Of a stretch of DNA of 62,877 nucleotides, positions 7,385-57,541 are shown one piece after another. A model generated the notes under the pieces. The model had not been told where the DNA came from, did not search any database, and saw nothing but the letters and a program-made list of their open reading frames with translations. The stretch comes from an uncultured Candidatus Saccharibacteria bacterium (GTDB lineage Bacteria; Patescibacteriota; Minisyncoccia; Phycocordibacterales; CSBR16-119): assembly GCA_964652835.1 (NCBI GenBank), contig CAZZCB010000003.1, positions 1 to 62,877 on the forward strand, written 5' to 3'. The position numbers and the translations under genes are program-made. The stretch's first letter is position 1, and every line of letters begins with the position of its first letter.

Positions 7385-8041
7385 ATGAACAATAGCTTAA
7401 AAAAACCAGAAGATATATTGCTAGTAAATAAACCAAAGGGAATAAGTTCTTTTGATGTTATTCGAATTCTCCGGAAGAAATTAGGAATTCGAAAAATGGG
7501 TCACGCTGGAACACTCGATCCACTGGCTTCGGGTCTTATGATTATCGGAGTTGAGACGGGAACTAAAAAATTAACTGACTACATAAAAAAAGACAAAACA
7601 TATGTCGCGGAAATTTTATTTGGTAGAAAAACAGATACAGGCGATATGGAGGGCGCCGTGCTGGAGCAAACAGAAATTTATTTTGTTGAAGATGATTACA
7701 TGAAAGAGCTGATGAATGCTTTCAGTGGTGATTTTGAACTCATGCCTCCAAAATATTCTGCTATTAAAAAAGATGGAAAGCCTTTGTATAAATACGCGCG
7801 AAGTGGGGAAGAGGTGGAGATATTGCCTCGAATTATGAAAGTTTATAAAAGTGAGTTTTTAGGAAGCGAAAAAGTACCTGAGGGTTTTATCGCTAGGGTT
7901 TCTTTCGACGTGGCTTCTGGAGTGTATATACGGTCTTTGGTTGAAAAGGTGGGTGATCTGCTAGGCGTGCCGGCAACGCTTTATAACCTAAAAAGGACTA
8001 AAATAGGGGAGTTTGAGCTGAAAAATGCTATTGATATTTAA
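7385..8041 (+). CDS. truB: tRNA pseudouridine(55) synthase
   Basis: GHAGTLDPLASGLMIIG catalytic Asp motif; YSAIKKDGKPLY. Confidence 0.95.
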   Translation: MNNSLKKPEDILLVNKPKGISSFDVIRILRKKLGIRKMGHAGTLDPLASGLMIIGVETGTKKLTDYIKKDKTYVAEILFGRKTDTGDMEGAVLEQTEIYFVEDDYMKELMNAFSGDFELMPPKYSAIKKDGKPLYKYARSGEEVEILPRIMKVYKSEFLGSEKVPEGFIARVSFDVASGVYIRSLVEKVGDLLGVPATLYNLKRTKIGEFELKNAIDI

Positions 8042-8152
8042 GGGTTTTTGGTCTGTGAGCAAGCTTGACTTTAATGCTCATTTGTGCTATATTATAGAAG
8101 GAAACTAAACCTTGAACCTTGCCAAGCTCGGTCAAATCCGAGCACAAAAATC

Positions 8153-9091
8153 ATGAAGAACATCACACAACTCTCGTTTTTCGTGGCGCTTGTTTTCTCG
8201 CTCTTCGGAGCAGAAGCTGGTGCTCAGGTTTACACACCTGACTGGCAGGACCGTATTGGTCCTAACAACATCACCGCGGTCTACAACTACGATTTCGATC
8301 AATCGTTCCGTCGGAGGGTTTATCGCAACATCGGTCCTTACTACTTGCCAAACTGGCAAGGGGTGACTGAGGACGTGATCGACGCCGGTCTTGGCACTGA
8401 CACTGTTATTCTGGATTACGGCGGTCAGATACTCGTTCAGATCTTGAACATGGATAACACCCCTACGGGAGTGCAGCACATCTTCAATCTGAGTACTTTT
8501 CCTCCGCCTACGATCTCGGTGTATGACATCATCTATGGCCAGCCACCGCTAATTCGGTTTCGGGCGGACATTAACTCTGCTTACGGCCTAGGGCGTCCAT
8601 CGTACTATGTTTCAAAGCTTAAATGTCGTCTCCAGCGCACATTTCCAAGCTTCTGGGAACAAACCGTTGAATGGACTTTTCCAATCGGAATTGTTCCGTT
8701 CGCAGAATTCAGTTTGCCGTTCGACTTCTTCGGAGACTACTGCGTTCAGTGGTCTGTCACCGATGAAGATACGAGCCTTGATTCTCACTTCGGTGAGATC
8801 ACAGTTTGGGAATCTGAGGTAATGTGTTTCTCGTACGGAAGTACAGGAATTCAGAGCGACAGGATGAAGGTGCAGTTCGGATCATTTCCGAATCCGTTTA
8901 CTGATGTTGTGACCATTGAGTCGCCGTCCGTTACGGATTACATCGTGCTCAGCACCTCCGGACAGCGGGTGGCCTCCGGGCAACTGTTTGTCGGACACAA
9001 CCGACTGTACGAACTCTCAGGCCTTAGCCTTACCCCTGGTGTATATATCTTGCAAACCGACTTGGGTCAGACCAAGATCGTAAAGCAGTGA
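8153..9091 (+). CDS. Secreted protein with a T9SS (Por) C-terminal sorting domain-like tail
   Basis: Signal peptide MKNITQLSFFVALVFSLFGAEAGAQ from ATG 8153. C-terminus FPNPFTDVVTIE...YIVLSTSGQRV...LSGLSLTPGVYILQTDLGQTKIVKQ matches the Por_Secre_tail pattern. G+C about 52% in line 8161-8220. Confidence 0.75.
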   Translation: MKNITQLSFFVALVFSLFGAEAGAQVYTPDWQDRIGPNNITAVYNYDFDQSFRRRVYRNIGPYYLPNWQGVTEDVIDAGLGTDTVILDYGGQILVQILNMDNTPTGVQHIFNLSTFPPPTISVYDIIYGQPPLIRFRADINSAYGLGRPSYYVSKLKCRLQRTFPSFWEQTVEWTFPIGIVPFAEFSLPFDFFGDYCVQWSVTDEDTSLDSHFGEITVWESEVMCFSYGSTGIQSDRMKVQFGSFPNPFTDVVTIESPSVTDYIVLSTSGQRVASGQLFVGHNRLYELSGLSLTPGVYILQTDLGQTKIVKQ

Positions 9092-9103
9092 ACCTTCTTC
9101 ATG

Positions 9104-9142
9104 AAAAAAACCCGCGGCGCGCATAGCGTTCGCGGGTTTTTT
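9104..9142 (+). terminator. Rho-independent terminator
   Basis: aaaaaaacccgcg...cgcgggtttttt. Confidence 0.7.
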
Positions 9143-9193
9143 CGTTGTATAATAAAAATAGGTCGCTCTTTATATTCACATAAACCCAAAGCC

Positions 9194-9985
9194 ATGAAAA
9201 AGCTCGCATGCATGCTTTTACTTGCGTTTACCTCTGCCTGCGCTTTTTCACAACAGCGCACGGATGTTATCCCAAATGAAGCCGACAGCAACATCTTCTA
9301 TTGTTACTTTTCTGCGTCTTATATTTTCCCGACCGGGAAACAGGACACTTTCCAGAAATCGCGTTTAAGGAGTGATGCGATAAAGGGTAACAGGCTTTCA
9401 AAAGCTGAGATGGAAATGGTTGGTTTTCCTTTCATGAAATACGACAGGAAATTTCATCCGCACTTACTCTTTGGGGCTAAGATGATTACCCCTGGGTATC
9501 TGTCGTCACAATTTGGTTTTGGAATTTCAACCCAGAACTCGTTCTCCAGCTGGAGCGTTGGGGTGCTCTATGGAACCTACTACCGCAGGGTTACCTACGA
9601 GTCAAACTTCATCTCAAGAAGGAAGCGCTCTTTTGAGAATTATAACCTTGCCGGTTTTTACCTTCAGTCGCGAAGTGACCAAGGAAGCGTTTCTTTCTCG
9701 ATGGCTTTTGAGAAAACTCACATTTTTGTTTTCACTCGTGTGGGATTATCTGTGGGTGAGACGCTCAGTATCGGCAAAAGTCACTCAGTGTATCGAAGTC
9801 TTGAGCTTGTGCTCGGCTTTGAATCTTTGATTGGCGCAAGTGCCGGACTTTCTGTGACGGTAGGCAGGACGCGTATAGAAGTCTTTAGGTTCATACCAGA
9901 CCCAAAAGACGTGTCTGAGCAGGCAAGATTGCAAACCGAACTTGTTCGGGGGTATGGAATTTCTTGGTCTTACTACGTGGACTGA
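9194..9985 (+). CDS. Secreted beta-strand-rich protein, possibly outer-membrane beta-barrel-like
   Basis: Start taken at MKKLACMLLLAFTSACAFSQQ (Bacteroidota-style signal peptide); alternating hydrophobic pattern and aromatic C-terminus; higher GC. Confidence 0.55.
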   Translation: MKKLACMLLLAFTSACAFSQQRTDVIPNEADSNIFYCYFSASYIFPTGKQDTFQKSRLRSDAIKGNRLSKAEMEMVGFPFMKYDRKFHPHLLFGAKMITPGYLSSQFGFGISTQNSFSSWSVGVLYGTYYRRVTYESNFISRRKRSFENYNLAGFYLQSRSDQGSVSFSMAFEKTHIFVFTRVGLSVGETLSIGKSHSVYRSLELVLGFESLIGASAGLSVTVGRTRIEVFRFIPDPKDVSEQARLQTELVRGYGISWSYYVD

Positions 9986-10001
9986 CCAATACGACAAGTC
10001 C

Positions 10002-10033
10002 AAATGCCGAAGGCGCAAGCCTTCGGCATTTTT
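10002..10033. terminator. Bidirectional terminator hairpin
   Basis: aaatgccgaagg-cgca-agccttcggcatttttt; closes both the + strand islet and the - strand surface operon. Confidence 0.7.
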
Positions 10034-11595
10034 TACAAACCAAGTTCTCTTTTAATCCTTCGGATAGTTAGCGCTCTTGTTGCGACTATCACTATTATTA
10101 CAATCAAAAATCCTAAGGCGATAGTTATCTCAGTTCCTAAAGAAGAAACTATAGAGTCAAAAGGTAAGAAAGAATTTCCTTTAATCTTTATTTCTACTGG
10201 ACGTGACCACTGACTTTGTGCACCTTTCGCATCGCTTACTCTAAACGAAATAAATACAATTCCTTTCTTTAAATCATCTTCTTCAAAAGTAAATCTTCCG
10301 CTAGCGCTTTGGAACTCTTGTCTTAATAAGAAGTTGTTTTTCTTGCTTGTTATTTTTGCTTCAATATTTCCGTTCGGAATAGTTTCTCCTTTTATCGTTA
10401 GAGTATCTCCAGCATTTATTCCAGCAGGGAAAGAAGTTACCTCTGGTGCCTCTAAAGCCTCTACTTCAATCTCTAAGAAAGATTCGTTTTTGTTTCCAGC
10501 TCTGTCATATGCTGTTATCACAAGCTCGTGCTGACCTGGGTCAATTCTCTCTAGCTTAATATTTCCATCTGCGAGGATTTCGTATTCCAAAGATTCTCCG
10601 TTTATGGAAAGTTCGAAGTTTTTAACACAAGAAGTTTTATCTTCTATTTTTAGAGCTATAACGGGTTTTGGATCTGTTAAGTCTCTCCTTTTAACTTCGT
10701 AAGCATCTATACTTGGCGGAGTGTGATCTATTTTTATTTTGAAATGTTCAGTTTCTTTCCATCCGTTGTTGTCTTGTAGACTCAGGTGAAAATACCAAAT
10801 TCCGTCTTCTAAGTTTTCATATCTTTTTTCGACTATTGCCGGACTGTTTATTGTAGATGGTTCGGACGTCGGGTTTCTGTCGAAAGATATTTTACTCGCC
10901 AGTGTACCTGTCGGTATATCCCAAGAGAACGACGCAGTGTTTTCTCTTCTCCAGACGACACCTGGATGCGTGCTTGAAGTTATGATAGAGTCTGGCTCAC
11001 AAACTTCACCCTCCTTTATTTCAGGAACTAGTGCCTCATCTATCGGCTTTAAATCATCAACCTTTATAACCTCTGGCTCTTTGACTGGAACTTCGGCAAT
11101 AGTAAAGCTGGCTGTTCCAACGGAGGCTAAAATGTTTGTTCCTACTCCATCGTTCGCCAAAACTGAAGAAGAAAAAATAGAAATACCCGCCGTTCCGGTA
11201 TTTTTACCTTTAAAGTTTATTGTTAAAAGTCTCCCAGAATTTCCTTGGTATCCTGGAGTTAGAACGACTCCTTCTAGTTTGATTTCACCAATTGCGTTTG
11301 AGAATGTTGGTTCTTGTGCCCAGAAATCTACGATAGAATTGTTTTTCGAAACAGATACAACCTGAAGTTTGTCAGAAGGGAATCTGATTGTTGCCGAAGC
11401 GGCGTTTATGGCTTTGTCAGGACTAGATACAAAGATTCCAACAGAGAAGTTTGCGTCTTTGTTGTATGTTCCAGATGCTGGAGAAAAGTTTAAGTTTGCC
11501 GCAAATAGATTTTGAGGAAAAGAAAAGACTAAAACAAACAATACTAAGAAAGCCTTTCCGATATTTTTTTGAATTCTTTTGACTGCCTTCTCCAT
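10033..11595 (-). CDS. Cohesin-domain surface protein with C-terminal TM anchor
   Basis: Signal peptide, then LNFSPASGTY..FSVGIFVSS..INAASATIRFPSDKLQVVSVS...GEIKLEGVV...LLTINFKGKNTG (cohesin-like); Ig-like middle region; C-terminal TM IALGFLIVIIVIVA + RRIKR. ORF open to 11622. Confidence 0.8.
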   Translation of the reverse strand: MEKAVKRIQKNIGKAFLVLFVLVFSFPQNLFAANLNFSPASGTYNKDANFSVGIFVSSPDKAINAASATIRFPSDKLQVVSVSKNNSIVDFWAQEPTFSNAIGEIKLEGVVLTPGYQGNSGRLLTINFKGKNTGTAGISIFSSSVLANDGVGTNILASVGTASFTIAEVPVKEPEVIKVDDLKPIDEALVPEIKEGEVCEPDSIITSSTHPGVVWRRENTASFSWDIPTGTLASKISFDRNPTSEPSTINSPAIVEKRYENLEDGIWYFHLSLQDNNGWKETEHFKIKIDHTPPSIDAYEVKRRDLTDPKPVIALKIEDKTSCVKNFELSINGESLEYEILADGNIKLERIDPGQHELVITAYDRAGNKNESFLEIEVEALEAPEVTSFPAGINAGDTLTIKGETIPNGNIEAKITSKKNNFLLRQEFQSASGRFTFEEDDLKKGIVFISFRVSDAKGAQSQWSRPVEIKIKGNSFLPFDSIVSSLGTEITIALGFLIVIIVIVATRALTIRRIKRELGL

Positions 11596-12434
11596 AAAAT
11601 GAAAGAGAGTATAAATGTACAAATTAAAATTAATATAGCTATTTTTTGATTAAAGCATTTGTGTCCGACGCAAATCTTTTCTGGTATGTAAACTTTCGAA
11701 ATCTTTTCATTTCCATCATAATCTATTGCCTTTACGTATATTCTCTCATTAATCTTTTGATTCACCAACACATACGGACTCTCTGCTTGTTTAAAAAGTT
11801 TTTTACCTTCTACAACTTCATATGTCTTTACACCAGAACCTTTGTCCATCGCTTCAAAAATCAAAACATATTTTCCTTCAGCGATATTTTTATCTTTAAC
11901 AAGTAATGCTTCGAAATCTTCAGGCGATGTTTTGTCCCGAGATGTGATCACTACATTTTGTTCGCCTTCACGCAAATCTCGGGCATTTATAGAAATATTT
12001 TTATTAGGAAGAGGCTCCTGTGTACCAAGTCCGTCGTTTAAAAGTATAAAAGTATCTTCAAGATTAAGAGGAAGATTGCCCGTGCTTTTAGGTACCACTA
12101 AAACTTGAAAAATTGTTCCATCTCCTTTAAAACCTCCGGCAATAATTCCCGAGAAATTTATTTGGTTATCCTTAGATCTAGAAGGGTTTTCTATCCAAGC
12201 CGAGATTATAGAGTTACCAGTTTTGATTTGTTTAATTTCTAAACCATTATCTACATTTAGTTTTCCGCTAACCGTGTTGTAAGAATTTCCTTCTGTTTTT
12301 AAGGCTATAGTTATCAAGATCTCATCACCAACTTTTATATCTTCAGAATTTAACATGTCAAAATCTATCAGACCGGCGGAAGCAGGCGAAGGAAAAAAGG
12401 TAAATAATATTAAAATGTAAATTAAATATTTCAT
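11544..12434 (-). CDS. Cohesin-domain surface protein with C-terminal TM anchor
   Basis: Signal peptide MKYLIYILILFTFFPSPASA; VGDEILITIALKTEG..YNTVSGKLNVDNGLEIKQIKTGNSII...INFSGIIAGGFKG..TIFQVLVVPKSTG; C-terminal TM. ORF open to 12449. Confidence 0.8.
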   Translation of the reverse strand: MKYLIYILILFTFFPSPASAGLIDFDMLNSEDIKVGDEILITIALKTEGNSYNTVSGKLNVDNGLEIKQIKTGNSIISAWIENPSRSKDNQINFSGIIAGGFKGDGTIFQVLVVPKSTGNLPLNLEDTFILLNDGLGTQEPLPNKNISINARDLREGEQNVVITSRDKTSPEDFEALLVKDKNIAEGKYVLIFEAMDKGSGVKTYEVVEGKKLFKQAESPYVLVNQKINERIYVKAIDYDGNEKISKVYIPEKICVGHKCFNQKIAILILICTFILSFILWRRQSKEFKKISERLS

Positions 12435-12436
12435 AA

Positions 12437-13477
12437 CTATCCGGTCCAATTAAATGCCAAAATACTAAAGTCTACCAGGTTAATCCTGCTATCTCCATTT
12501 AAACAGTTTGATTCAACTATTATAATGTCTCCAGTTAAAATTTTGTTATACCAAAAAGCAGCGATAGAAAAGTCTATTAAACTTACTTTTCCGTCCTGGT
12601 TTAAGTCAGCCCTGCAAGAAGTTTCTCCTGGGACTTTTGGAATGTTTTGGTCTCCAACTTGAAAGGCTACTCTAGTACCAAAACCACTAGATTCTCCAGT
12701 TTCAAGATTCGTTTTTGAGCGACTACTGTGTGATCCGTACTCTAAGGGGGCTGAGTTAAAGTTATAAAGATAAACCCCGTCTTCATCTGACGCTGCATTT
12801 ACAAAAATCTGCGTCTCCGAGTTTACCTCTATTGTTACGTCACTTTCGGGAACTGTTTGTCCAAAGATTACAATGTCGTCACCCTTTCTTACTTCTGCTT
12901 TATCGACGTCTATTGTTGGTGATAAGAATATCCCACTAACGTCTGTTGTTGATCCTTGGGTTATAAAAACAGGGAAGGAGAATGGATTTCCTGTTACTCC
13001 GTTTTCGTCGGTTGCTCTGACTGTGAAGTTGTAATTTCCTGGACTAAGGTCTCCCAAGCTTACGCGAAATCTTGCGTCAGGTCCAGCTATTGTCTCGACT
13101 GTTATAACTCCGTCTTTCAGTATCGTAACTTTTGAAAGAGGGTAGGCGCGTCCAGAAAAAGTAACTCCGGTTTCTGGTGGTCTTGTTCCTCCACCGCCAC
13201 CTCCGCCTCCACCCCCTCCGCTAGGCGGAGTCACTGTTGCCTCCTCATCATCGTCAGTGTAAGAAGAACAATCTGGGTCATTTGGAAAGTCTATAAAAGT
13301 ATCGCTGTCGTTGTCTTGTCCATCGAAACACTGTGGAGCCGGAACTATTGTGATCGTAAAGTTTGAGTTTTCTGCTGAATTTATTTCTGGGGTTTTTAAA
13401 ATAAAAAAATATACAAATAAGCCTACAAGAAGTATTAAAGAAAGAATTATAAATTTTTTTGTTTTAATTAATATCAT
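12437..13477 (-). CDS. Dockerin-containing secreted protein with an 11-Gly linker
   Basis: N-terminal TM; CFDGQDNDSDTFIDFPNDPDC; G11 tract; Ig-like middle; C-terminal duplicated EF-hand-like segments DLNQDGKVSLIDFSIAAFW and LNGDSRINLVDFSILAFNW (dockerin). Confidence 0.8.
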   Translation of the reverse strand: MILIKTKKFIILSLILLVGLFVYFFILKTPEINSAENSNFTITIVPAPQCFDGQDNDSDTFIDFPNDPDCSSYTDDDEEATVTPPSGGGGGGGGGGGTRPPETGVTFSGRAYPLSKVTILKDGVITVETIAGPDARFRVSLGDLSPGNYNFTVRATDENGVTGNPFSFPVFITQGSTTDVSGIFLSPTIDVDKAEVRKGDDIVIFGQTVPESDVTIEVNSETQIFVNAASDEDGVYLYNFNSAPLEYGSHSSRSKTNLETGESSGFGTRVAFQVGDQNIPKVPGETSCRADLNQDGKVSLIDFSIAAFWYNKILTGDIIIVESNCLNGDSRINLVDFSILAFNWTG

Positions 13478-13478
13478 T

Positions 13479-16400
13479 TTAACTTGCGATGATAGACAGA
13501 GTCATATCGATTGAATAATTACCTGATGCTTGTTCTGGTGGTATGGTCTGAGAAATATCTATGTCTGTTATATCCCAATAACAACCAGTGTCTGCGCCTG
13601 TGGCCGCACTTGCTAGAGTCACAGAGTTTGTCACTCCTTCATTAAAAGACCCCGAAGATCCAGAAGAAATGTTTGTCAGAGTACATCCGCCTTCAGGAGT
13701 TATGGTCGAAGTAGAAGGGTCTATGGTCATTTGTCCACCAAGTGAATCTGTATCTCCTCCGTCTAGAGCGCCTGCTGTTGGGTCGTTGAAGTCATAGTCA
13801 GAGGATACTCCATCCCAAAAAGATGTAGCTCCGGCATCTGCGGCGAGTGAAAGCGTCCAAGTGGCTGTACCGGTGCCGTTGTCTACTCTTATTTTTTGGC
13901 CAGATGTTCCAAAGCTTCCAGTCGAAATTTGATCGTCAAAAGAAAATGAGGCGCTAGTCATTGCTACAGTTGGGGCGCCTACTGGGGTTCCTCCCGCATC
14001 TACAATATCCGCAGAAAGAGCTCCACCGCCACCAGCTATTGTTATTTCCGGATAAGTAGTATATGTACCCAAAAGAGTGTCATCTGATTTAACAATTCTA
14101 AAACAGAAAGTTGTGCTGGCTGTAGCGCCGTTGTCCACTAGGGAGAAATCAAATTTAGCTGTTTGTCCGTTTAATACTGCTGACTCTGAGTTTGTAAAAT
14201 CGTTCAACTCTTCGTATGTTTGGTTTACTATTGTCCTCGCTCCGTCTGTCGGGTCGTTTGCATTACTAACCAGAGCTAGTCCGTCTGTCGGTGTGGCGTT
14301 ATCTTTATACGCAACTAACGTTGCGCCTGTTACATCTGTATATGATGCAGGAGTTCCTCCAGAAGGAGACGCGCAAGTTCCAGCTCCCATATCTACGTAC
14401 TGAAGTTTAAAATCCTGAGAACTAGAGTAGAGGTTTCCGTTGTCGACTCTTGTTAGAAGTCTTAGTCTGAATTCTTGTCCCGCTGTTGAAAGAGTTGCCG
14501 GGGTGTCTTGCGCTGCTAGAGCAGATCCCACATCAGCGCTGTCAGCGTTTCCAAAAAATCTATAAGCTTGCTGTGCGTAATTTTTCCCATCCCAAGCTGC
14601 GTATTGATATGTTGATCCACCTGTTTCGTTTACCTCTACTCCGACACCCAAAGAAAAACCATTTTTAATTAAGTTTGTTATTCTCCCTGTTAGGGTCGCA
14701 AGGTTGGCGAATGGTTGAGTCGCATCTCCTGTTTGAGCGGAAGTTCTTAATACTCCGTTGCGCGCAGTTCCTCCTGTTGTTTTTTTAATCCAAATATGGT
14801 CCGGCTGAAAACCCACCGCGGCTATGTTTTTTATCGTCGCATTACCGGTGTACGTACCTGTCATAAATTTTTCGTTATCTTGAAAAGCAAAGTAGTCGTA
14901 TATTCCGGCACTTGCGTTTGATACCGTACTAGAGCCAACTTGGAATCCATCTGCTGTAAATGATTGAATTACATTTGCTGTAAGAGCGAGATCAGAAAAA
15001 TAAAGGTTTTGGTCACCAGACTGATCAGAGGTTCTCCATACTCCTGCTGAAGTCCCTCCTCTTTTTATGGCAACAAGATCTGGAGACATTGGCAATCTAT
15101 CTATGTTCACACTGTCTCTACTTGTACCAATATATTGCCCAACTAAAAAATCAGGAGACCCGCCAGATTTATCTGGCTTCATGGCATTTCCAAAGGCGGT
15201 CCAATAATATGTGTCACCAAGAGTGTTTGCAAGTGCACTGGTTCCAACAGTAAAACCGTCGGCGGTTATAGAGGTAACACCCCCGGTAAAAACCGAACTA
15301 GTGTTTGACAGGGTCTGAGTCCGGTCTCCAATCATAAGACTCGTTCTAAAAATAGCGTGTTGGTCTGTTGCCTGGTCATCGTGCTTTATGATTATAAGAT
15401 CAGGTGAGAAACCAACGCCTGTTATACCGAGCGCCGCACCTGTTCCTGTATATGAACCACTATTTATCAGAAGCTCGTCAGTTCCCGCCGCTTTTGTGGA
15501 CGCCCCTCCGAAAGCTGCGTAGTGGTGTGTTACACCACTAGAGTTGACTGTTGTGGCGGCCCCGATTTCAAATCCACCACCAGATTTTTTAAGCGACTGT
15601 ATTATGTTCACAGTCGCGCCTCCGTCAGGTATGGCTGAAGATCTGTCTCCATAAAACTCAGAAGTCGTAAATACTCCGTTTTGGGGTGTGCCATGATCTG
15701 AGGCTTTTATCCATACAAAATTAGGAGTGAAGTCGAGATTTGGATCAACCGCTGGTCCAATGTGTCTTGAGTCCACCCCAGTTCCTGTGTAGGTGCCAAC
15801 ATCCATAAAGTCGTCCACTTCTTTGAATGCAACATAATAATAGTTGGTTCCATTTGAGTTTGCGCTCGAGTTAGAGCCCACGCTAAAACCAGTGGTATCC
15901 AGAGATTCTATACCCCCTGATGCCAGCTCATTCGCATTGTGAAAATAGTTCGAGGCTGTACCAGCCATTGACGATGACTTCCATATACCCACTGCTGAAC
16001 CTGATGTTTTTGTTATTACTAAATCAGGTTGAAACCCAACAGACGTGATGCTTTGCGACCCGCCATTTCCTGTATAAGTTCCGACACAAAAAGTACCAGA
16101 CGCAGAGCAGTCTGATCCATCAAATGCAGTGTAGGTAAAAAATACGTTTGCAGCGTTGACGTCTGAATCTGAGCCCACAGTAAATCCGTCCGCGTCCAAT
16201 GACTGAATTAGATTGTTTGCCGCGTTATCTGTTTCAGCAAGAACTACAGTAGTCTCACCAGACATTTCAGAGGTTTTTAAAAGCATTCCTCTAGTACCTC
16301 CAGCAGTGTTGTCTTTTAATAAAACCATATCCGGCGAAAAGCCTAACCCTGTGATGGTTCTGTTATCTGTGTTGTTTCCCACGTAGTATCCAGTCTGAAT

Positions 16401-16643
16401 AGAAAAAGTCGCCGCCTCCGCTTTTTCCACCTTGGGCTTCAGTAGTTCTGTTAACCCTTTGTCTATTACATTCCCATCTTTCTTAGCCCAATAAAGTGCG
16501 TCGATAATATTTTTTTCATCAACTTTTTCATTTATGTATGATATTAAAGAGCTTGAAGGTATTCCGCCAAGCAAAAAAGCCAAAACTAAAAAAAGAGTCC
16601 CAACGGGTTTTAATATTTTTTTAATAATTTGAAACATAATCAT
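13479..16643 (-). CDS. Giant secreted repeat protein (1054 aa) with a C-terminal WxL-like domain
   Basis: N-terminal signal/TM; six ~90-aa tandem modules (GF.PD.V.IK ... GF.VG ... Y.Y.AF); C-terminal ~190 aa paralogous to 19670..20371, including TATWTLSLAA and terminal DMTLSIIAS. Confidence 0.85.
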   Translation of the reverse strand: MIMFQIIKKILKPVGTLFLVLAFLLGGIPSSSLISYINEKVDEKNIIDALYWAKKDGNVIDKGLTELLKPKVEKAEAATFSIQTGYYVGNNTDNRTITGLGFSPDMVLLKDNTAGGTRGMLLKTSEMSGETTVVLAETDNAANNLIQSLDADGFTVGSDSDVNAANVFFTYTAFDGSDCSASGTFCVGTYTGNGGSQSITSVGFQPDLVITKTSGSAVGIWKSSSMAGTASNYFHNANELASGGIESLDTTGFSVGSNSSANSNGTNYYYVAFKEVDDFMDVGTYTGTGVDSRHIGPAVDPNLDFTPNFVWIKASDHGTPQNGVFTTSEFYGDRSSAIPDGGATVNIIQSLKKSGGGFEIGAATTVNSSGVTHHYAAFGGASTKAAGTDELLINSGSYTGTGAALGITGVGFSPDLIIIKHDDQATDQHAIFRTSLMIGDRTQTLSNTSSVFTGGVTSITADGFTVGTSALANTLGDTYYWTAFGNAMKPDKSGGSPDFLVGQYIGTSRDSVNIDRLPMSPDLVAIKRGGTSAGVWRTSDQSGDQNLYFSDLALTANVIQSFTADGFQVGSSTVSNASAGIYDYFAFQDNEKFMTGTYTGNATIKNIAAVGFQPDHIWIKKTTGGTARNGVLRTSAQTGDATQPFANLATLTGRITNLIKNGFSLGVGVEVNETGGSTYQYAAWDGKNYAQQAYRFFGNADSADVGSALAAQDTPATLSTAGQEFRLRLLTRVDNGNLYSSSQDFKLQYVDMGAGTCASPSGGTPASYTDVTGATLVAYKDNATPTDGLALVSNANDPTDGARTIVNQTYEELNDFTNSESAVLNGQTAKFDFSLVDNGATASTTFCFRIVKSDDTLLGTYTTYPEITIAGGGGALSADIVDAGGTPVGAPTVAMTSASFSFDDQISTGSFGTSGQKIRVDNGTGTATWTLSLAADAGATSFWDGVSSDYDFNDPTAGALDGGDTDSLGGQMTIDPSTSTITPEGGCTLTNISSGSSGSFNEGVTNSVTLASAATGADTGCYWDITDIDISQTIPPEQASGNYSIDMTLSIIAS

Positions 16644-17589
16644 AAGATGCTTTTGAAATCTCTGCCATTATTTCTTTCGCCTTCTCTCTACCACCGCTGT
16701 CTTTGGTGTTAACCATGATGGTTAACAGGTATGGTCTGTTTGGAACGTACACAATACCTGAATCAAGATATGTAGATTCAGGATCGTATTCACCTATTTT
16801 GTGAGAAAAAGTAATATTTTCTGGTACTCCGCTACCTAGGAATTCGTTAAATGGAGTTTCTGACAGCCAATTTAAAAGCATTGTAGAGTATTCTCTTTTC
16901 AAGAAGCTTGATGTGTATAGAGTTCTGAATACTCTGGAATATTCTTTTGCTGTTATATTGTAGTCTGCGTCGTAAAGACTCTCCATCCCGAGCGCTGCCA
17001 GCATTTGTTCAAAATCTTCACCCTCCAGGTTTCTTACAAGCATTCTGTGCGCAGTGTCATCTGAATTTATAATAAGCTCTTTTAAAAGTTCTTCTATTGT
17101 AAGACGTGTTCCAACTTGTTTTTTGTATAAATCTCCGAAGGCGTCATTTCTGTCTTCATAATAAAGTATTAGTTCATTATCAAGTTTCCACTCCTCCATT
17201 TCAATTTTTTTCATAACAACAAGCGCTGTTGGCATTTTAGAAAGGGAAGCTGGCCAAAATCTAGAGTCTTGGTTTATCGATACGTTTGCACCAGTGTTTA
17301 AGAATTCAAAATAAACTCCCACCCTACCTCCTTCTTTTTCATGTCTTGTAACGATTTCTTTAAGCTCCGACCGAAGAGGTTCTATTGTGGAGAAAAAGTG
17401 TTCTTGATCTATTAAACTTCTAGATGGATCTATAAGAGGATACGGATTTGAGAAAGAATTTTGTTTTTTGTCTCCTATAAATAAAACTCCTGTAAAAAAA
17501 CTTATAAGTAAGAGAAAAAATATGATACATTTTTGTTTTGTACTTAGATTGCTTTTAGGTATTTTACTTTGTTCTTTATTCTTATTCAT
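16621..17589 (-). CDS. Class-A beta-lactamase-like serine hydrolase, membrane anchored
   Basis: N-terminal TM; S-x-x-K (ASLSKMP), SDDTAHRML (SDN-like), HKIGE (KTG-like) in the canonical order. Confidence 0.7.
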   Translation of the reverse strand: MNKNKEQSKIPKSNLSTKQKCIIFFLLLISFFTGVLFIGDKKQNSFSNPYPLIDPSRSLIDQEHFFSTIEPLRSELKEIVTRHEKEGGRVGVYFEFLNTGANVSINQDSRFWPASLSKMPTALVVMKKIEMEEWKLDNELILYYEDRNDAFGDLYKKQVGTRLTIEELLKELIINSDDTAHRMLVRNLEGEDFEQMLAALGMESLYDADYNITAKEYSRVFRTLYTSSFLKREYSTMLLNWLSETPFNEFLGSGVPENITFSHKIGEYDPESTYLDSGIVYVPNRPYLLTIMVNTKDSGGREKAKEIMAEISKASYDYVSNY

Positions 17590-18376
17590 TTATTAAATTC
17601 ATTTGGCAGATAATAGAACTGTTCTTTGAACCTTTTTCTGTAAAAACAAAAGAAACGTTAAAATTTCCTTTTTGCGCCGTCACCATTTTTTCTATTAAAA
17701 TGTTTGTTGTTTGTTCTGCTGATATTGAAGTTTTGGTCTGGTTATTTTTTTTGAATTTTATTTTAAAACCAGACGGCACCCCAAGAACCTCGATATCTTT
17801 TGCAGTAGAAGCGCTTCCTGTGAGGATTATCTTTTTCTCTAGAGAATTCTGACTTGTCATATTCGCAGTAAAATTTTCCATCCTACAAGAATGGTCCGCT
17901 GACGGGTCTATTTGTATTTTTCTTTCTGGTGGCCGTACGGATATTTTAGGTATATTTGCTGGTGGTATGTAGATTGGAGAGATAATATTTTCTGGTTCCT
18001 CTTTATCTTCTTCTGTGGTCTTGACAACTACGGGCTGTGTCGCCACAGGGGAATTTGGCTCTGACACGGTTACAGGCGGTGGGACTGGTTCTGCTGGCGC
18101 TAACACGACTATTTCTTCCTGAGGGGCTTGATTTTGTGTCTCCGACGGGATCACTTCTGGGGCAGAGGGTTCTTCTACTGTGGTACCAGTCTCTACTCCC
18201 GCAACCTGACCCTCATTTCCCCCCAAGCTCTCTGTGGGTGTACTTTCTTGACCATCTGTTTCCGTGCTTGGAATCTCTGATTCCTGTGCGCTTGTATTTC
18301 TGATATGAAAAAAAGACTGTGTTAAGAGGCCTAATATTAAAAAAGAAAATATAGTTTTAGATGTGTTTTTTGTCAT
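17582..18376 (-). CDS. Secreted Pro/Glu/Thr-rich protein (264 aa)
   Basis: Signal peptide ..IRNTSAQE; low-complexity P/E/T-rich N-half; beta-rich C-half; overlaps neighbour by 8 nt. Confidence 0.7.
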   Translation of the reverse strand: MTKNTSKTIFSFLILGLLTQSFFHIRNTSAQESEIPSTETDGQESTPTESLGGNEGQVAGVETGTTVEEPSAPEVIPSETQNQAPQEEIVVLAPAEPVPPPVTVSEPNSPVATQPVVVKTTEEDKEEPENIISPIYIPPANIPKISVRPPERKIQIDPSADHSCRMENFTANMTSQNSLEKKIILTGSASTAKDIEVLGVPSGFKIKFKKNNQTKTSISAEQTTNILIEKMVTAQKGNFNVSFVFTEKGSKNSSIICQMNLINE

Positions 18377-18450
18377 ATTTTAGGTAGGTAATATAAGGTT
18401 AATATATCGGTTTCATTATACCAAAAATACAAAGCCGTGTATTAACACTT

Positions 18451-19641
18451 TTATCTTTTTGTGGAAGCGGATTTTCGTGGTGGCGGAACTTTTATTTCTT
18501 GACCTTCTTTTACCATAAACGGAGGTTTAATTTTATTTACCTCTACTAGAAGCTCCCAATGAACTTTGTTTTTTCTGGCGATGCCTTCGATTGTGTCTCC
18601 GGACTCGACGGTATAATCTGTCCATTTTTTAATCCACTTTTGTTTCTTTTTGTTTAATCTCCAAATTGCAAAAACAAAGATAGCTATAAACAAAATAGTT
18701 ATCTCTATAATTAACCCAAAAATAGTTGGAGCAGAGAAGAACCAAATAGTGTCTGATTTTACCTTTGTTAGTTTCTCTCCAGAAGATACACCGATGCTCG
18801 CATTTTTATCTGAATCGTATGAGAAAACCGCTTTTGCAAAATAAAGTCCACCCCAGAAAGGTCTCTTGAGCTCAAAGTTAAAATCATAAACTTCGTCACG
18901 AAGAACAGGGAACTCTCCACCGAAAGTTTTATGAGGTAATCCAAAGAAATATTTAACTTTTACTTCTGCTGTTGTGTCCACCGAAACGTTTCCAGTGTTT
19001 TTAACAGAAGGCATAAGGTAAATAGATTTATTTTTATTTTCTACTTTGAAATTTAAGAATTCTATTTTTCTTGAAATTTTACCAGGCACACTTACAGCCA
19101 CACGTATTCCACTTCGAAGACTAAGCGAAACTCCGGTGTCGCTAGCGTTTTGCTTAATCTCTTGGATAAGAACACATCCGTTATGTTCTCCGACAGATGC
19201 ATCTACAGGGACGTTTATATTAAAAGGAATAACAACCTCAGATCCCTCGGGTATTGTTATCTGTATTGTGTTTGCTTTCTCTCCTGGTTTGATGTTTGCA
19301 ATATCTTCTTCAAGATTTGAAATATCAAAAGTAATCCATTGTCCGACGCCAGTAGGTTCCTCTGAGAGTTGTTTACAAGCAAAGCCTCCGCCAGAAGATC
19401 TGACAGAGTCTCTGGCGTAAAGTAATAAGTTTTTAGATTCACCGGTGCTGTTTATAACTTTTACACCTTCACTTTTTAGTTCGCCTGGATTTATCGTTTG
19501 AACAAAGATAGAGTCTGTTCGAGGGTTTTCAGCTCTTGGGTATGCTGGCTTTATACCGAAATTAGCAGCCAAAATAATGCTTGGGAAAAAAAACACACTT
19601 AAAATAAAGAGGGTGAAGATTCCTTGAAAAGATTTTTTCAT
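18451..19641 (-). CDS. DUF916/DUF3324-like (CscA-like) surface protein with TM anchor and C-terminal LysM
   Basis: Signal peptide; FGIKPAYPRAENPRTDSIFVQTINPGE..VKVINSTGESKNLLLYARD; second beta domain; TM IFGLIIEITILFIAIFVFAIW + RLNKKKQK; LysM YTVESGDTIEGIARKNKVHWELLVEVNKI. Confidence 0.7.
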   Translation of the reverse strand: MKKSFQGIFTLFILSVFFFPSIILAANFGIKPAYPRAENPRTDSIFVQTINPGELKSEGVKVINSTGESKNLLLYARDSVRSSGGGFACKQLSEEPTGVGQWITFDISNLEEDIANIKPGEKANTIQITIPEGSEVVIPFNINVPVDASVGEHNGCVLIQEIKQNASDTGVSLSLRSGIRVAVSVPGKISRKIEFLNFKVENKNKSIYLMPSVKNTGNVSVDTTAEVKVKYFFGLPHKTFGGEFPVLRDEVYDFNFELKRPFWGGLYFAKAVFSYDSDKNASIGVSSGEKLTKVKSDTIWFFSAPTIFGLIIEITILFIAIFVFAIWRLNKKKQKWIKKWTDYTVESGDTIEGIARKNKVHWELLVEVNKIKPPFMVKEGQEIKVPPPRKSASTKR

Positions 19642-19669
19642 ATGAGGATTATAGCAAAAAATCTTAATC

Positions 19670-20371
19670 CTAAGAAGCTACGATAGAGAGGGTCATGTTT
19701 ATGTCGTAGTCAGAGGCTGCCGGTTGTTCCGCAGGGATTGTTTGAGAAATATCAATATCTCTAACATACCAGTCTCCAATATCGTCTGCACCTGATGCCG
19801 CAGTAACTAGGGTTATGGAGTCTGTAACACCTTCTTCGAATGAGTCTGATGCTCCAAGTGTTACTCCTGTCGTGTCACAAGTAGCGCAAGCCCCAGCAGA
19901 AAGAGTTGCCCCAGAAGGGTCGACTGTCATTTGTCCGGCAACAGTGTCAGTGTCACCACTGTCCGCACATCCAGCTGTTGTTGGGTCGTTAAAGTCAAAG
20001 TCTGTTCCCGCTGAATCCCAAACAGCAGTAGTTGCTGATCCAGCTAAAGAAACTGTAAATCCGTTGTCTGCCGCGTCAGGGTTTACAATATAGATTTGTT
20101 GAGACGCTGTTCCAAAAGTTCCAGTAGATGTCTGGCAAGAAAAGCTAAAAGCTGTCGATCCTAGAGTCACAGAAGGTGATCCGACCGTTACGTATGATGA
20201 ATCTGTAATATCTACTTCTATTGTTCCGGCTGTGATCGTTTGTTGAAAGTTAGACGTGTCTGCTGCTAGAACTAAACTTGTTCCGGAAGCCACGAAAACA
20301 AAAATAAACCCTAAAGCCAGAGTCTTTTTTAAAGAAAATCTTGAAATAATTAAAGTACTTATTTTATCCAT
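19670..20371 (-). CDS. Small secreted WxL-like protein (233 aa)
   Basis: N-terminal signal/TM; whole mature part paralogous to the C-terminus of 13479..16643; ends DIDISQTIPAEQPAASDYDINMTLSIVAS. Confidence 0.75.
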   Translation of the reverse strand: MDKISTLIISRFSLKKTLALGFIFVFVASGTSLVLAADTSNFQQTITAGTIEVDITDSSYVTVGSPSVTLGSTAFSFSCQTSTGTFGTASQQIYIVNPDAADNGFTVSLAGSATTAVWDSAGTDFDFNDPTTAGCADSGDTDTVAGQMTVDPSGATLSAGACATCDTTGVTLGASDSFEEGVTDSITLVTAASGADDIGDWYVRDIDISQTIPAEQPAASDYDINMTLSIVAS

Positions 20372-20472
20372 ATGTATATAAATTAATGCTTCCTATATAT
20401 TATCACTTTTTTAAATAACACAATAAATGGGCAGCTGTGGAAAGTGTGAATAACTTGGTGTATTATATTAGT

Positions 20473-26630: not shown

Positions 26631-27632
26631 ATGGATCCTGAATTAATTAAAAAATTACCTCATCGTAATGAGGGTGGATCATTTAAAATTGGAGAAGAAG
26701 GAGATGGAAACTTATCCGATATGATTCCACTTGAGGGATATGGGATGGTTATTGTTACCAGAAAGAGTGTCTGGAGAATAATGTTGGCTGACAATATCGA
26801 CCCACAAAGAAATAATGCAAATATTCCTCGTCAGGTGCAGGAACGTCTTTTGTCGTACGGCTCAGACGATCCCATTGTCGGAAGAACACTCCTTCAAGGA
26901 AAGGAACTTCTTCTTGAACATCTTCCAAATACCATAGACAAATATCAGGGTATGCAACTTGTTTTGGCTTTTACTAAAGAGCTTGCCGCGATGAATGATG
27001 AACTAAAGAAGCTTCGTGAGGAATACACAGAAATACAAGATCGCTTCAATGGAAGCATTAGAGATGACGGATCGTTTGTCCTGCCTGTATTAAAGAATCT
27101 TGAACGAAGATCAAAAGAGATTATTCAAAATATAGATCACATGGGAGGGGTTGTTATTGATATTGCAAAACTATTTCCCATTAAAACGCCTCAGAAAAAT
27201 CCGTTAGGAAAACTTATTGAACAAACTGAACAAAAGTTTGGAAATGAGCATGCGGTCACAAAGGCAATTTCTGAACTAAACAAAAAAGCGGGATGGTGGA
27301 GATTTCTTCGTAATGACATGGAACACCCTAGTGATTCTGGTAGGGTTGTTTTTGAAAATTACAAGATGACAGATTCTGCAAAAATAGAAATGCCTCTTAT
27401 AAAACACTCCCGGGAAAGCAGTCCTTTTCAATCAATCGATTTAATAAAATTTATTGTCGAATCTCAAGGAGAAATCATTGATCTTTTTGAAACTACCCTT
27501 GTTCTTCTTTGTGATTCAAATACTGAGAATTTTGCGGGAGACAAGGTCTTTGTGAGAAATGTTTTAGACTCAGAACGAACTGAAACAAACCCCTATATGA
27601 ATTATAAATACGATATTCATTGGACTAAGTAG
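26631..27632 (+). CDS. Hypothetical protein (333 aa), no recognisable domain
   Basis: Long clean ORF with its own terminator. Confidence 0.7.
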   Translation: MDPELIKKLPHRNEGGSFKIGEEGDGNLSDMIPLEGYGMVIVTRKSVWRIMLADNIDPQRNNANIPRQVQERLLSYGSDDPIVGRTLLQGKELLLEHLPNTIDKYQGMQLVLAFTKELAAMNDELKKLREEYTEIQDRFNGSIRDDGSFVLPVLKNLERRSKEIIQNIDHMGGVVIDIAKLFPIKTPQKNPLGKLIEQTEQKFGNEHAVTKAISELNKKAGWWRFLRNDMEHPSDSGRVVFENYKMTDSAKIEMPLIKHSRESSPFQSIDLIKFIVESQGEIIDLFETTLVLLCDSNTENFAGDKVFVRNVLDSERTETNPYMNYKYDIHWTK

Positions 27633-27734: not shown

Positions 27735-28044
27735 CTCCCCGAGTAGGGATCGAACCTACGACCAATCGATTACATTTACCCTAAAATTACTTAAAGGAAT
27801 GGACTATATCATCACCGTGTTCCAAATGGAATTTAGGTGCAAGGCGCTTCGGTCTTGAATTTCAAGATCTACTCCATAAAGGATAGTCTCTGAACCTTCC
27901 TCAACCTTTGAGGCTTGGCTGCTGATTACCCGCCATGTTAATGGTTTGGGCTTCCAGGCAATTCACCTTGTTTTTCATCCCTTCGTTTCCGGAGGGAGCT
28001 GCAATATCTTACAGTCGATTGCTCTACCGCTGAGCTATCGGGGA
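27735..28044 (-). tRNA. tRNA-Asn(GUU) interrupted by a group I intron (exons 28044..28011 and 27772..27735)
   Basis: Minus-strand exons UCCCCGA-UA-GCUC-AGCGGUA-GAGC-A-AUCGA-CUGU | UAA-UCGAU-UGGUC-GUAGG-UUCGAUC-CCUAC-UCGGGGA-G form a perfect cloverleaf. Anticodon loop CUGUUAA, U1-A72 and discriminator G as in bacterial tRNA-Asn. No encoded CCA. Confidence 0.8.
27773..28010 (-). ncRNA. Group I intron (IC3-like, 238 nt) in the anticodon loop
   Basis: P1: exon CUGU pairs with intron GCAG 8 nt downstream, giving U.G at the 5' splice site. Intron ends ..AAAUG (omega-G). Core UUCAGAGACUA and AGCCAAGC..GAAGGU, plus CCGGAAACGAAGGGAUG, resemble the Azoarcus/Anabaena tRNA introns as I remember them. 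Confidence 0.7.
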
Positions 28045-28713: not shown

Positions 28714-29103
28714 ATGAATATAAATATCAAAGCAACAAACATGGACCTAACAGACACTCTAAGAGATTATGTTCATTCGAAAATAGGAGCGCTGGAAAAA
28801 ATCATCGGAAGCTCTGAAGACATAAATGTTTTTGTTGAAATCGGAAAAGAATCAAATCACCACAATAAAGGAGAAGTTTATATGGCTGAAGTCAGAACTC
28901 GTATTTCTGCAAAAGACTATTACATTAAAAAATTTGAATCAAATTTGTATGCCGCTATCGATGCCGTGAAAGATGATTTGATCAGAGATGTAAAAGTAGA
29001 TAAAAAAAGAGGGGAGACACTCTTCAGACGAGGCGCTCGAAGTTTAAAAAAGAGAATAAAAGGAATGAAACCTTGGTGGCCGTTTGGAGGAAAAGAAGAT
29101 TAA
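28714..29103 (+). CDS. hpf: Ribosome hibernation promoting factor / RaiA family
   Basis: MNINIKATNMDLTDTLRDYVHSKIGALEK ... LYAAIDAVKDDL pattern. Confidence 0.9.
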   Translation: MNINIKATNMDLTDTLRDYVHSKIGALEKIIGSSEDINVFVEIGKESNHHNKGEVYMAEVRTRISAKDYYIKKFESNLYAAIDAVKDDLIRDVKVDKKRGETLFRRGARSLKKRIKGMKPWWPFGGKED

Positions 29104-56918: not shown

Positions 56919-57065
56919 CTTTCTTCGCTTTCGCGAATACTCCTAGTCTTCGGTGTGTATTATATCACATATTATATGCTTTTGTCAAGCTAAAATACGG
57001 CTTAAATAAAGGGTTTTTGGTGTTAAATCCAACAAAAAACACCCTAAAAGGGTGCTTTTTATTTG

Positions 57066-57147
57066 TGCCCAGGAGAGGACTCGAACCTCCACGGATTGCT
57101 CCATTGGTTCCTAAGACCAACGCGGCTACCAATTACGCCACCTGGGC
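57066..57147 (-). tRNA. tRNA-Leu(UAG)
   Basis: GCCCAGG-UG-GCG..UAAUUGGUAG..; anticodon stem UUGGU/ACCAA, loop CUUAGGA; long variable arm; T-arm GGAGG-UUCGAGU-CCUCU; no encoded CCA. Confidence 0.9.
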
Positions 57148-57215
57148 ATTATTATCTATTCAATTTTGTTCTACAATCTTACTTCAAAAATATTTCCTAC
57201 GCCAGGCTAGAGCTG

Positions 57216-57240
57216 TATTCAAACTTGCGCCACCTGGGCA
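57216..57240 (-). repeat. Fragmentary tRNA-Leu 5' copy, 92 nt upstream of tRNA-Leu(UAG)
   Basis: Minus strand GCCCAGGUGGCG + CAAGTTTGAATACAG, then ..AGCCTGGCGTAGGAA echoes the D-arm and anticodon loop of the real gene. Confidence 0.6.
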
Positions 57241-57295
57241 TGTAAATTTAATCAATAAATTTATGATTGAATACTATCATAAATAAATCAATTTG

Positions 57296-57368: not shown

Positions 57369-57392
57369 TGACAGATGAAAATATTCATCTTG

Positions 57393-57474: not shown

Positions 57475-57541
57475 AATATTTATTTTATTTTGAAAAGACT
57501 TTAATTCTTATACCACAAATGCCCTAGCACGTATACCCCTA

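Follow-up and report, generated by a model that had tools for sequence, protein, structure and literature searches.

A Patescibacteria gene locus in which a WxL-like cluster adjoins genes for a dockerin protein and two cohesin-like proteins

The Candidate Phyla Radiation (CPR), also called Patescibacteria, accounts for a large share of bacterial diversity, and its members live attached to host cells. To our knowledge, hardly any of the surface proteins that serve this attachment have been described apart from type IV pili. The present work concerns a locus of eight genes, here called g1 to g8, on a contig of an uncultured Candidatus Saccharibacteria bacterium (NCBI GenBank assembly GCA_964652835.1, contig CAZZCB010000003.1). 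The whole stretch of DNA that was analysed, positions 1 to 62,877 of the forward strand, is referred to as the window. The eight open reading frames (ORFs) span 10033-20371 on the minus strand. The proximal genes appear to form a divergent cluster of the WxL type known from Gram-positive bacteria, and the distal three, hereafter the trio, encode a dockerin protein and two cohesin-like proteins. An original prediction, made from the letters of the sequence, had proposed that both groups belong to one system at the cell surface. In order of transcription, the genes are the following.

19670-20371, minus strand: g1, 233 aa, small secreted protein with a signal peptide and one conserved beta-sandwich domain
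18451-19641, minus strand: g2, 396 aa, WxLIP (DUF916) homologue with a transmembrane helix and LysM
17582-18376, minus strand: g3, 264 aa, secreted protein with a Pro/Glu/Thr-rich linker; accessory
16621-17589, minus strand: g4, 322 aa, membrane-anchored serine hydrolase of the class-A beta-lactamase fold
13479-16643, minus strand: g5, 1054 aa, large secreted protein with DUF7483 repeats and a C-terminal g1-type domain
12437-13477, minus strand: g6, 346 aa, secreted dockerin protein
11544-12434 (or 12449 via a TTG start), minus strand: g7, 296 aa, cohesin-like, Ig-like, with a C-terminal transmembrane anchor
10033-11595 (or 11622), minus strand: g8, 520 aa, cohesin-like, Big_13 Ig-like, with a C-terminal transmembrane anchor

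The coordinates, the common direction and the tight junctions given in the original prediction were all confirmed from the sequence. Five of the seven junctions are abutting or overlapping. Overlaps of 8 nt (g3/g4), 23 nt (g4/g5) and 52 nt (g7/g8) are found, the last of them also in the related locus L004, and spacers of 1 nt and 2 nt separate g5 from g6 and g6 from g7. Two true gaps, which the original prediction had not mentioned, lie between g1 and g2 (28 nt, 19642-19669) and between g2 and g3 (74 nt, 18377-18450). Each of the eight products begins with a signal or an anchor, that of g3 being the weakest. The named relatives of the window proteins all belong to Patescibacteria, the closest being Paceibacterota, and the G+C content of the window is low (0.35-0.45), as in a CPR genome.

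Domains of the encoded proteins

By sequence comparison, g2 is a true homologue of the WxLIP (DUF916) proteins. It consists of a signal peptide, a PGBD-like domain, a second beta domain and one transmembrane helix followed by LysM. In Pfam, the window protein matches LysM (E 6.9e-12) and, below the gathering threshold, WxLIP_PGBD (5e-4; 20.5 bits, threshold 27.3). The latter model (PF06030) matches 43 of 52 relatives of g2, with a best E-value of 5e-9. Moreover, the family profile matches the structures of EfmWxLIP1 from E. faecium in the PDB (9i25_C, 9i1y_A; E 3e-7), and its alignment by hhalign to nine WxLIPs from Firmicute plasmids reached Prob 98.2 and E 3.7e-14 over 194 columns. The alignment runs from the signal peptide through the PGBD into the second domain, where it takes in about 40 columns of the HBD. 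None of the 52 relatives matched the Pfam model DUF3324/HBD (PF11797); in this place g2 has a beta-rich region of the right size, followed by the single transmembrane helix and by LysM, which is no part of WxLIP. The identification of g2 as DUF916-like in the original prediction is borne out by these matches.

LysM is found in 51 of the 52 relatives of g2; in the window it belongs to the C-terminal part of the protein encoded at 18451-18660. Its usual role is extracellular. In g2, it is predicted to lie on the cytoplasmic side because it is placed after the only transmembrane helix and a strongly basic stretch. Indeed, lysine and arginine together average 1.0 in the 15 residues before the helix versus 5.2 after it, and this topology is common to 46 of the 52 members.

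The small and the large protein of the locus share a domain. The protein g1 comprises a signal peptide and one domain, and the same domain forms the extreme C-terminus of g5 (residues 871-1054, the last 184 aa; 49% identity to g1, E 9e-47), a pattern that recurs in most of 79 related loci. The remainder of g5 includes four DUF7483 repeats (Pfam, E 1.8e-36) and a conserved middle domain. For the g1 family, Pfam holds no model. The family counts 771 relatives at 90% clustering, and identity among the best 120 is 57-95% even though several CPR lineages (Kerfeld-, Dojka-, Peregrini- and others) are represented. Four cysteines are invariant, Asp-rich loops (NPDAAD, DFDFND, DxxDxD) are present, and the N-terminus of the mature protein is nearly invariant (TSNFxQTIxAGTLxVDI). 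A search with the C-terminal domain of g5 yielded mostly small g1-type proteins and fragments, not large proteins, and was used for alignment depth.

The original prediction had called g1 and the C-terminus of g5 WxL-like. The shared domain and the WxL-cluster arrangement stand, and membership in the WxL domain family is no more than a possibility. Not one of 24 g1 members matched the Pfam WxL model (PF13731), even at E <= 10. Searched singly against Pfam and NCBIfam, g1, g3 and g7 gave nothing significant, and the g1 profile met with chance matches only among PDB sequences (TbpB, Rae1; E >= 0.3). Two of the 24 members matched the camelysin/TasA family (Peptidase_M73) weakly (E 0.039), which is taken as a lead only. 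For a more sensitive comparison, genuine small and large WxL domains from plasmids of Enterococcus, Bacillus, Listeria, Lactococcus and Lactiplantibacillus were aligned as a reference. Against it, hhalign gave g1 a Prob of 4% with a shallow g1 alignment and of 20-30% with a deeper one (P about 5e-4), the overall range of P being 5e-4 to 1e-2. Two local matches were obtained. One pairs qIYVxNPdaAdxGWTvSlA of g1 with the first WxL motif (vqVxDxRGtxxGWtLtV), the other IPAEQpAaSDYxInMvLS with the C-terminal one (VPxxxxxAxxYxstLTWxL). The matches are co-linear, and which of them appears depends on the WxL alignment used. In the g1 family, the first motif takes the form GW(T)xSL in most members and GFTVSL in the window; INM(T/V)LS stands in place of the second. 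These matches are suggestive of a remote homology between g1 and WxL, not proof of it, and g1 is filed here as WxL-like by position and architecture, not as a demonstrated member of the family.

The structure of g1 was predicted with AlphaFold2 (AF2). A model of the full-length protein, based on 24 close relatives, had a predicted local distance difference test score (pLDDT) of 53.6 and was discarded for a model of the mature domain with 134 sequences, which reached a pLDDT of 95.5 and a predicted template modelling score (pTM) of 0.89. It shows an all-beta sandwich, with the first 16 residues modelled as coil. Within this N-terminal stretch, T39, F42, I46 and G49 are invariant. The best Foldseek matches in the PDB were almost all donor-strand pilins (Csu 7zl4, FimA, FimG, CS17), together with the Pyrodictium cannulae subunit 9h8b. 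All of these matches are weak: the best E-value is 6.8e-3 and none is at or below 1e-3, with TM-scores of 0.40-0.49 and a root-mean-square deviation of about 13 A. The solved WxL chain 9i25_A was not among the top 50 matches of the model.

As judged from its sequence family, g6 carries a real dockerin, in keeping with the original prediction. After the signal peptide, the mature protein opens with an SNFxIxI motif. Next come an acidic disulfide motif and a poly-Gly linker, and a pair of Ig-like domains precedes the C-terminal dockerin. The latter is formed by two F-hand repeats with the sequences DLNQDGKVSLID and LNGDSRINLVD; the window protein has Cys in place of the first Asp in the second loop. 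Pfam finds Big_6 (2e-8) in the window protein and, just below the gathering threshold, Dockerin_1 (2.3e-4; 21.7 bits, threshold 22.9). The family profile matches several dockerin structures, among them 2y3n_B (1.7e-6) and 1daq (1.3e-4).

The products of g7 and g8, likewise taken for cohesin-like in the original prediction, appear to be so at the level of their families. Each ends in a predicted transmembrane helix. In g8, Pfam reports Big_13 (1.3e-8) and, below threshold, Cohesin (1e-3; 19.8 bits, threshold 24.1); the Cohesin model matches 8 of 14 relatives, with a best E-value of 1.8e-7. The N-terminal domain of g7 resembles that of g8 (E 1e-6) and is followed by an Ig-like domain. The g7 family profile matches the R. 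flavefaciens cohesins 5aoz and 5m2o (E 1e-4) over about 55 residues. Distant relatives of g7 carry PF00963, and one of them is named 'cohesin domain-containing protein [Patescibacteria group bacterium]'.

One sequence motif is common to g6 and g1. Directly after the signal peptide, the g6 family opens with (A/G)(S/T)SNFx(I/L)xI, and the same motif opens mature g1. Searched in the first 70 residues, the pattern S[NQ]F.[ILMVQ].I occurs in 21 of 24 g1 and 10 of 21 g6 relatives and in none of 86 relatives of g2, g7 and g8. Its background is 3% of all ORFs of the loci, g1 and g6 families included.

The remaining two genes, g3 and g4, are regarded as probable lineage-specific accessories. The conserved C-terminal domain of g3, about 120 aa long, recurs beside g4 in L004, L021, L023, L027, L052 and other loci. 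As the original prediction had it, g4 is beta-lactamase-like (Pfam Beta-lactamase2, 7.1e-41). The SxxK motif is present; with the NCBIfam model bla_class_A the protein reaches 101.6 bits, the cut-off being 200. The gene recurs in about a dozen related loci. Both g3 and g4 perhaps serve in wall remodelling.

Conservation of the gene order

Two sets of related loci were compared. The first was seeded with g1 and holds one genome per GTDB species, giving 79 loci, all of them CPR except for some obviously mislabelled bins. Loci with g2, a large protein with the g1 domain and at least 3.5 kb beyond it were considered informative (n = 36). The second set was seeded with g8 in metagenomes, where at least 600 stretches encode it; 80 of these loci were kept.

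In the 79 species-level loci, g1 and g2 are adjacent almost without exception; in most of them, the gene for a large protein that ends in the g1 domain comes next. The full order of eight genes, including the neighbours DUF2914 and BacA, is found in L004 and L005 (76% g1 identity). In 16 of the 36 informative loci, g6 and g7 come directly after the large protein, and in 14 g8 does too. Trio-bearing loci occur in Falkowbacteria, Colwellbacteria, Parcubacteria and Paceibacterota, among others. Conservation of the order in relatives, the lack of which the original prediction had listed among its refuting conditions, is supported. The linkage of the two modules is frequent, not universal.

Within the g8-seeded set, the order g6-g7-g8 is present in 63 of 80 loci. 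In the other 17, the available sequence ends within about 1.1 kb upstream of g8 or, in L094, the genes are rearranged. Where at least 3 kb are available upstream, a g2-type gene precedes g6 in 14 of 27 loci and usually abuts it. Short paralogues of g2 have the canonical WxLIP build of two domains, a transmembrane helix and a Lys-rich tail; LysM is absent from them.

Such a short paralogue (300-350 aa, tail KKYNQWI) and the trio form a four-gene unit, near which no g1-type gene was detected. The loci with this unit, and an example of the short protein, are given below.

Four-gene unit: L097, L100, L104, L107, L112, L113, L123, L125, L140, L143, L147, L148, L153, L158
Short WxLIP: L100, 6961-7923

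Two further observations were made in the related loci. Upstream of the trio, L133 (4055-8862) and L097 (2000-5042), in which g1 and g2 were not recognisable, contain ORFs of 1189, 175, 200, 690 and 307 aa, none of which has a Pfam match; the trio may have additional divergent partners among them. In L014, L021, L023, L027, L031, L036, L038 and L052, the g2 homologue has 2-8 in-frame stops under translation table 11, nearly all of them UGA, as in lineages with a genetic code like 25. These eight loci have the order g1-g2-g3-g4-large-g1-g1, with no g7 or g8.

Transcription signals and surroundings

The original prediction had seen no GC-hairpin terminator inside the locus. A scan for strong hairpins (perfect stem of at least 8 bp with at least five GC pairs) confirmed this, as no site was found between 10032 and 21584. 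The accompanying statement that such hairpins mark almost every other gene boundary was overstated: the 62.9-kb window has 16 sites, which lie where transcription units end and amount to about one in 3-4 kb. A generic terminator scan returned a few weak sites within the coding sequence of the locus, and their total is at chance (16 versus 13.8 +/- 3.7 expected). The signals of the locus are the following.

20372-20436, minus strand: divergent intergenic region upstream of g1, with TGaTAATAT at 20405-20397, read from the sequence
19656-19648, minus strand: extended -10-like TGcTATAAT in the g1/g2 spacer, 6 nt before the ATG of g2
18423-18415, minus strand: extended -10-like TGgTATAAT in the g2/g3 spacer, loosely conserved
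10002-10031, no strand assigned: distal hairpin with a 13-bp stem, flanked by an A-tract and a T-tract (-23.1 kcal/mol, z = -4.5)

Transcription of g1-g8 as one unit is plausible from these data, because an internal hairpin is lacking and several starts and stops overlap. The region 20372-20436 is the likely main promoter region as predicted from its sequence. The element in front of g2 differs from its surroundings: TTTG(A/C)TATAAT is kept 6-7 nt before the start of g2 in the window and in L004, L006, L007 and L008, and the rest of the spacer varies. Such a pattern is expected of a promoter for a leaderless mRNA, and the element may thus serve g2 as an internal promoter of this kind. The g1/g2 spacer forms no stable hairpin (z = -0.35), and the folding of the g2/g3 spacer is undistinctive (z = -1.1).

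The hairpin which the original prediction had placed at the distal end is real, as none of 200 shuffled sequences folded equally well. Its longer T-run is on the plus-strand side, and on the minus strand the stem is trailed by UUU only. Because of the position of the long T-run, the hairpin looks better suited to the convergent plus-strand gene 9101-9985.

Genes of the cell envelope lie nearby. The DUF2914 protein, BacA/UppP, the YkuD L,D-transpeptidase and the sortase listed in the original prediction were all found again with Pfam. The stretch 8001-10000, which adjoins the locus and holds the plus-strand ORFs 8084-9091 and 9101-9985, has a G+C content of 0.47 compared with 0.36-0.40 in its flanks. 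Moreover, ORF 8084-9091 has a weak match to the C-terminal sorting domain of the type IX secretion system (Por_Secre_tail, E 1.1e-4), unexpected in a CPR genome. This stretch could be the result of a horizontal transfer or an assembly chimera. Farther away, a full-length group I intron (Rfam RF00028, 65.9 bits) occupies 27780-28021 of the minus strand, between ORFs 26631-27632 and 28714-29103; ARAGORN found no tRNA at this site. The minus strand also has a cluster of four tRNA genes at 57065-57706, namely Leu(tag), Lys(ctt), Leu(taa) and Cys(gca).

A proposed envelope system and its relation to known systems

The best explanation, in which we place moderate confidence, is a conserved envelope system of CPR bacteria in which a WxL-type module and a dockerin-cohesin trio are linked and act as one assembly. 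It builds on what was read directly from the loci, namely the domain identities, the domain shared by the small and the large protein, the gene order and its conservation, the signal peptides and transmembrane anchors, and the shared motif. The first module would be a divergent WxL-type cluster made up of membrane-anchored g2, single-domain g1 and large g5. By analogy with the WxL clusters of Firmicutes, g2 would capture g1-type domains and hold them at the cell surface, and the variable adhesin-like repeats of g5 would be displayed outward through its C-terminal domain held by g2. In the second module, the dockerin of secreted g6 would plug into one or both of the membrane-tethered cohesins of g7 and g8; we infer this binding from the invariant co-occurrence of the three genes. 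Because the mature SNF-x-I-x-I motif is common to g6 and g1, g6 may engage the partner of g1, be it a WxLIP-type protein or a g1-type domain, and its dockerin would then tie the complex to g7 and g8. The model implies protein-protein contacts, a surface location, co-transcription and, in these host-dependent bacteria, a likely role in surface scaffolding and attachment.

Several observations weigh against this explanation. A cytoplasmic LysM in g2 is left unexplained by a simple peptidoglycan-binding anchor. For g1, the lack of a Pfam WxL match, the low hhalign probabilities and the absence of 9i25_A from the top 50 Foldseek matches speak against a close relation to WxL. With the conserved TGnTATAAT before g2, the locus may have more than one transcription start. 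Finally, 14 of the 36 informative loci have no trio, including those of Kerfeldbacteria, Levybacteria and UGA-recoding lineages, and in roughly half of the loci seeded with the trio, neither g1 nor g2 was recognised in the sequence at hand, so that one module can occur without the other. These last two counts would be expected if two independent surface modules merely lay side by side in a neighbourhood of envelope genes, as would the internal promoter-like elements and the nearby envelope genes of unrelated function. Such a chance arrangement is considered unlikely, although it deserves to be taken seriously. The genes for the large protein and g6 adjoin closely, with 1 nt between them in the window and a similarly tight junction in distant lineages, and the adjacency recurs across several CPR classes. 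Moreover, a WxLIP paralogue abuts g6 in many loci without g1, and g1 and g6 open with the same motif. The fact that WxLIP-type genes and the trio are linked in two arrangements argues for a functional connection, not for accidental adjacency.

The structural matches of g1 raise another possibility. The protein could be the major subunit of a polymer resembling a pilus or fibre, assembled by donor-strand complementation through its conserved N-terminal extension. The WxLIP homologue g2 would be a membrane-bound chaperone or assembly platform with two Ig-like domains, g5 a tip adhesin comparable to FimH, and g6 the subunit at the base, with its N-terminal strand inserted into the fibre and its dockerin as the anchor to the cohesins of g7 and g8. 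A confident model that is most similar to chaperone-usher pilins and to a cannulae subunit would fit such a fibre, as would the first 16 residues of mature g1, which are coil in the monomer model yet among the most conserved. The same holds for the conservation of g1, which at 57-95% is far above that of the rest of the system (26-48%), as expected of a polymer subunit, for the motif shared by g6 and g1, for the weak camelysin/TasA match and for the Asp-rich loops of g1, which resemble calcium sites. In the published AF2 predictions for WxL proteins, a hairpin strand of DUF916 inserts beside the N-terminal strand of the small WxL protein (xGxIxFxxG..L; PMC10599100), which is also in line with donor-strand complementation. 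Any Ig-like sandwich could give Foldseek matches as weak as those obtained, and the g1 profile has no sequence similarity to any pilin or TasA in the PDB. A donor-strand fibre is hence regarded as doubtful. Its most far-reaching form, in which g1 is the subunit of an unrecognised, CPR-wide surface fibre on a WxLIP-type platform, with a tip adhesin of the g5 type and a g6 base docked to two cohesins, seems a shade more doubtful again. As a CPR bacterium, the organism is expected to be monoderm. If true, chaperone-usher pili would have a monoderm counterpart in this fibre, and by extension the WxL clusters of Firmicutes might follow the same principle.

Two other explanations were rejected. The locus might be an island for the maintenance or remodelling of peptidoglycan, with g4 and the LysM protein as its core and the other genes as passengers. 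The Beta-lactamase2 fold of g4, the near-constant LysM of g2 and the neighbouring UppP, L,D-transpeptidase and sortase would suit this function. It is very improbable, given that g3 and g4 are absent from most related loci while g1, g2 and the large protein are constant, that the conserved core has no enzyme and that LysM is predicted to be cytoplasmic. The presence of cohesin and dockerin modules also recalls a cellulosome-like complex for polysaccharide degradation. A cellulosome would be expected to have a scaffoldin with multiple cohesins and enzymes bearing dockerins; here, there are one dockerin and two single-cohesin proteins, and the sole enzyme, g4, has a beta-lactamase fold and no dockerin. 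Searches of the eight proteins in Pfam and NCBIfam found no glycoside hydrolase or carbohydrate-binding module. This reading can be almost completely discounted.

With this locus, a set of predicted CPR envelope proteins is recognised that is conserved and very widespread, as reflected in the 771 relatives of g1 and the at least 600 metagenome stretches encoding g8. The core of the set is homologous to a surface-anchoring system of Gram-positive bacteria that has been regarded as almost exclusive to Bacilli. The locus provides the first genetic link of WxLIP-type proteins to cohesin-dockerin pairs, and a testable model for the attachment of a variable adhesin and a dockerin protein to the CPR cell. 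Furthermore, g1 is unusually conserved for a surface protein, which makes it a priority for structural and localisation work.

Compared with known systems, donor-strand fibres (Fim, Csu, archaeal cannulae, TasA) are the best structural matches of the g1 model, but weak ones, with TM-scores of 0.4-0.5. Common to both are the conserved N-terminal extension of g1, unstructured in the monomer model, the build of g5, which resembles a tip adhesin in having adhesin domains followed by a C-terminal pilin-type domain, and the two Ig-like domains of g2. Chaperone-usher pili differ in having an usher, which is missing from the CPR system; g1 has no pilin sequence similarity, and its polymerisation is hypothetical.

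Cohesin- and dockerin-like modules are known outside cellulosomes. As in those cases, the CPR locus has a type-I-like dockerin of two F-hands at the C-terminus of a secreted protein and cohesin-like sandwiches on cell-anchored proteins. In contrast, its anchoring is by C-terminal transmembrane helices, not by SLH or sortase. The trio is also fixed in its composition of one dockerin and two single-cohesin proteins, its dockerin protein is free of enzymes, and it is tied to WxLIP-type genes. Some CPR relatives of the trio have already been annotated automatically as cohesin proteins in NCBI.

A dockerin-like domain on an envelope protein of Patescibacteria has been reported before. In the cultured Saccharibacterium Southlakia epibionticum, the dockerin-domain surface protein SEML1_0315 is essential and was implicated in epibiotic growth by transposon sequencing (Tn-seq; PMC10633639). 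It was rejected as an instance of the same system, because the gene for this 927-aa protein stands alone and its neighbours are unrelated. The Pfam table of that study contains no accession for DUF916, cohesin or dockerin (PMC10633639).

The WxL/Csc clusters of Bacilli are the closest known system (PMC9772566, PMC10599100, PMC1534035). Such a cluster is defined by a small WxL protein, a WxLIP and a large protein with a C-terminal WxL domain (PMC9772566, PMC10599100), and 91% of known WxL proteins are found in Firmicutes (PMC9772566). Like the clusters of Enterococcus, Listeria and Lactiplantibacillus, the CPR locus encodes a WxLIP homologue (there DUF916, DUF3324 and a transmembrane helix), a small protein of about 230 aa with a signal peptide and one domain, and a large protein with the same C-terminal domain behind variable repeats; all products are secreted. 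The order small protein, WxLIP, large protein, frequent in WxL clusters though no requirement, is shared by the CPR loci and the Firmicute plasmid loci L088, L091, L092 and L176 (Enterococcus, Bacillus). In contrast, the shared domain of the CPR proteins is outside Pfam WxL. The second Trp of its W-x-L motifs is replaced (INMxLS), in the window also the first (GFTVSL); four of its Cys are invariant, and its loops are rich in Asp. An LPXTG protein is missing from the CPR cluster, and g2 carries a LysM after its transmembrane helix, where a Firmicute WxLIP has none. Moreover, its hosts are not Bacilli, and it is joined to a cohesin-dockerin trio. In the openly accessible literature that was searched, outside subscription journals, a description was found neither of the cluster nor of a combination of WxL, cohesin and dockerin, and CPR homologues of WxLIP/DUF916 were not found described either, in line with the original prediction of an undescribed combination. 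The kinds of components are already known; what is new is a CPR variant that joins a WxLIP-type cluster to a dockerin-cohesin trio.

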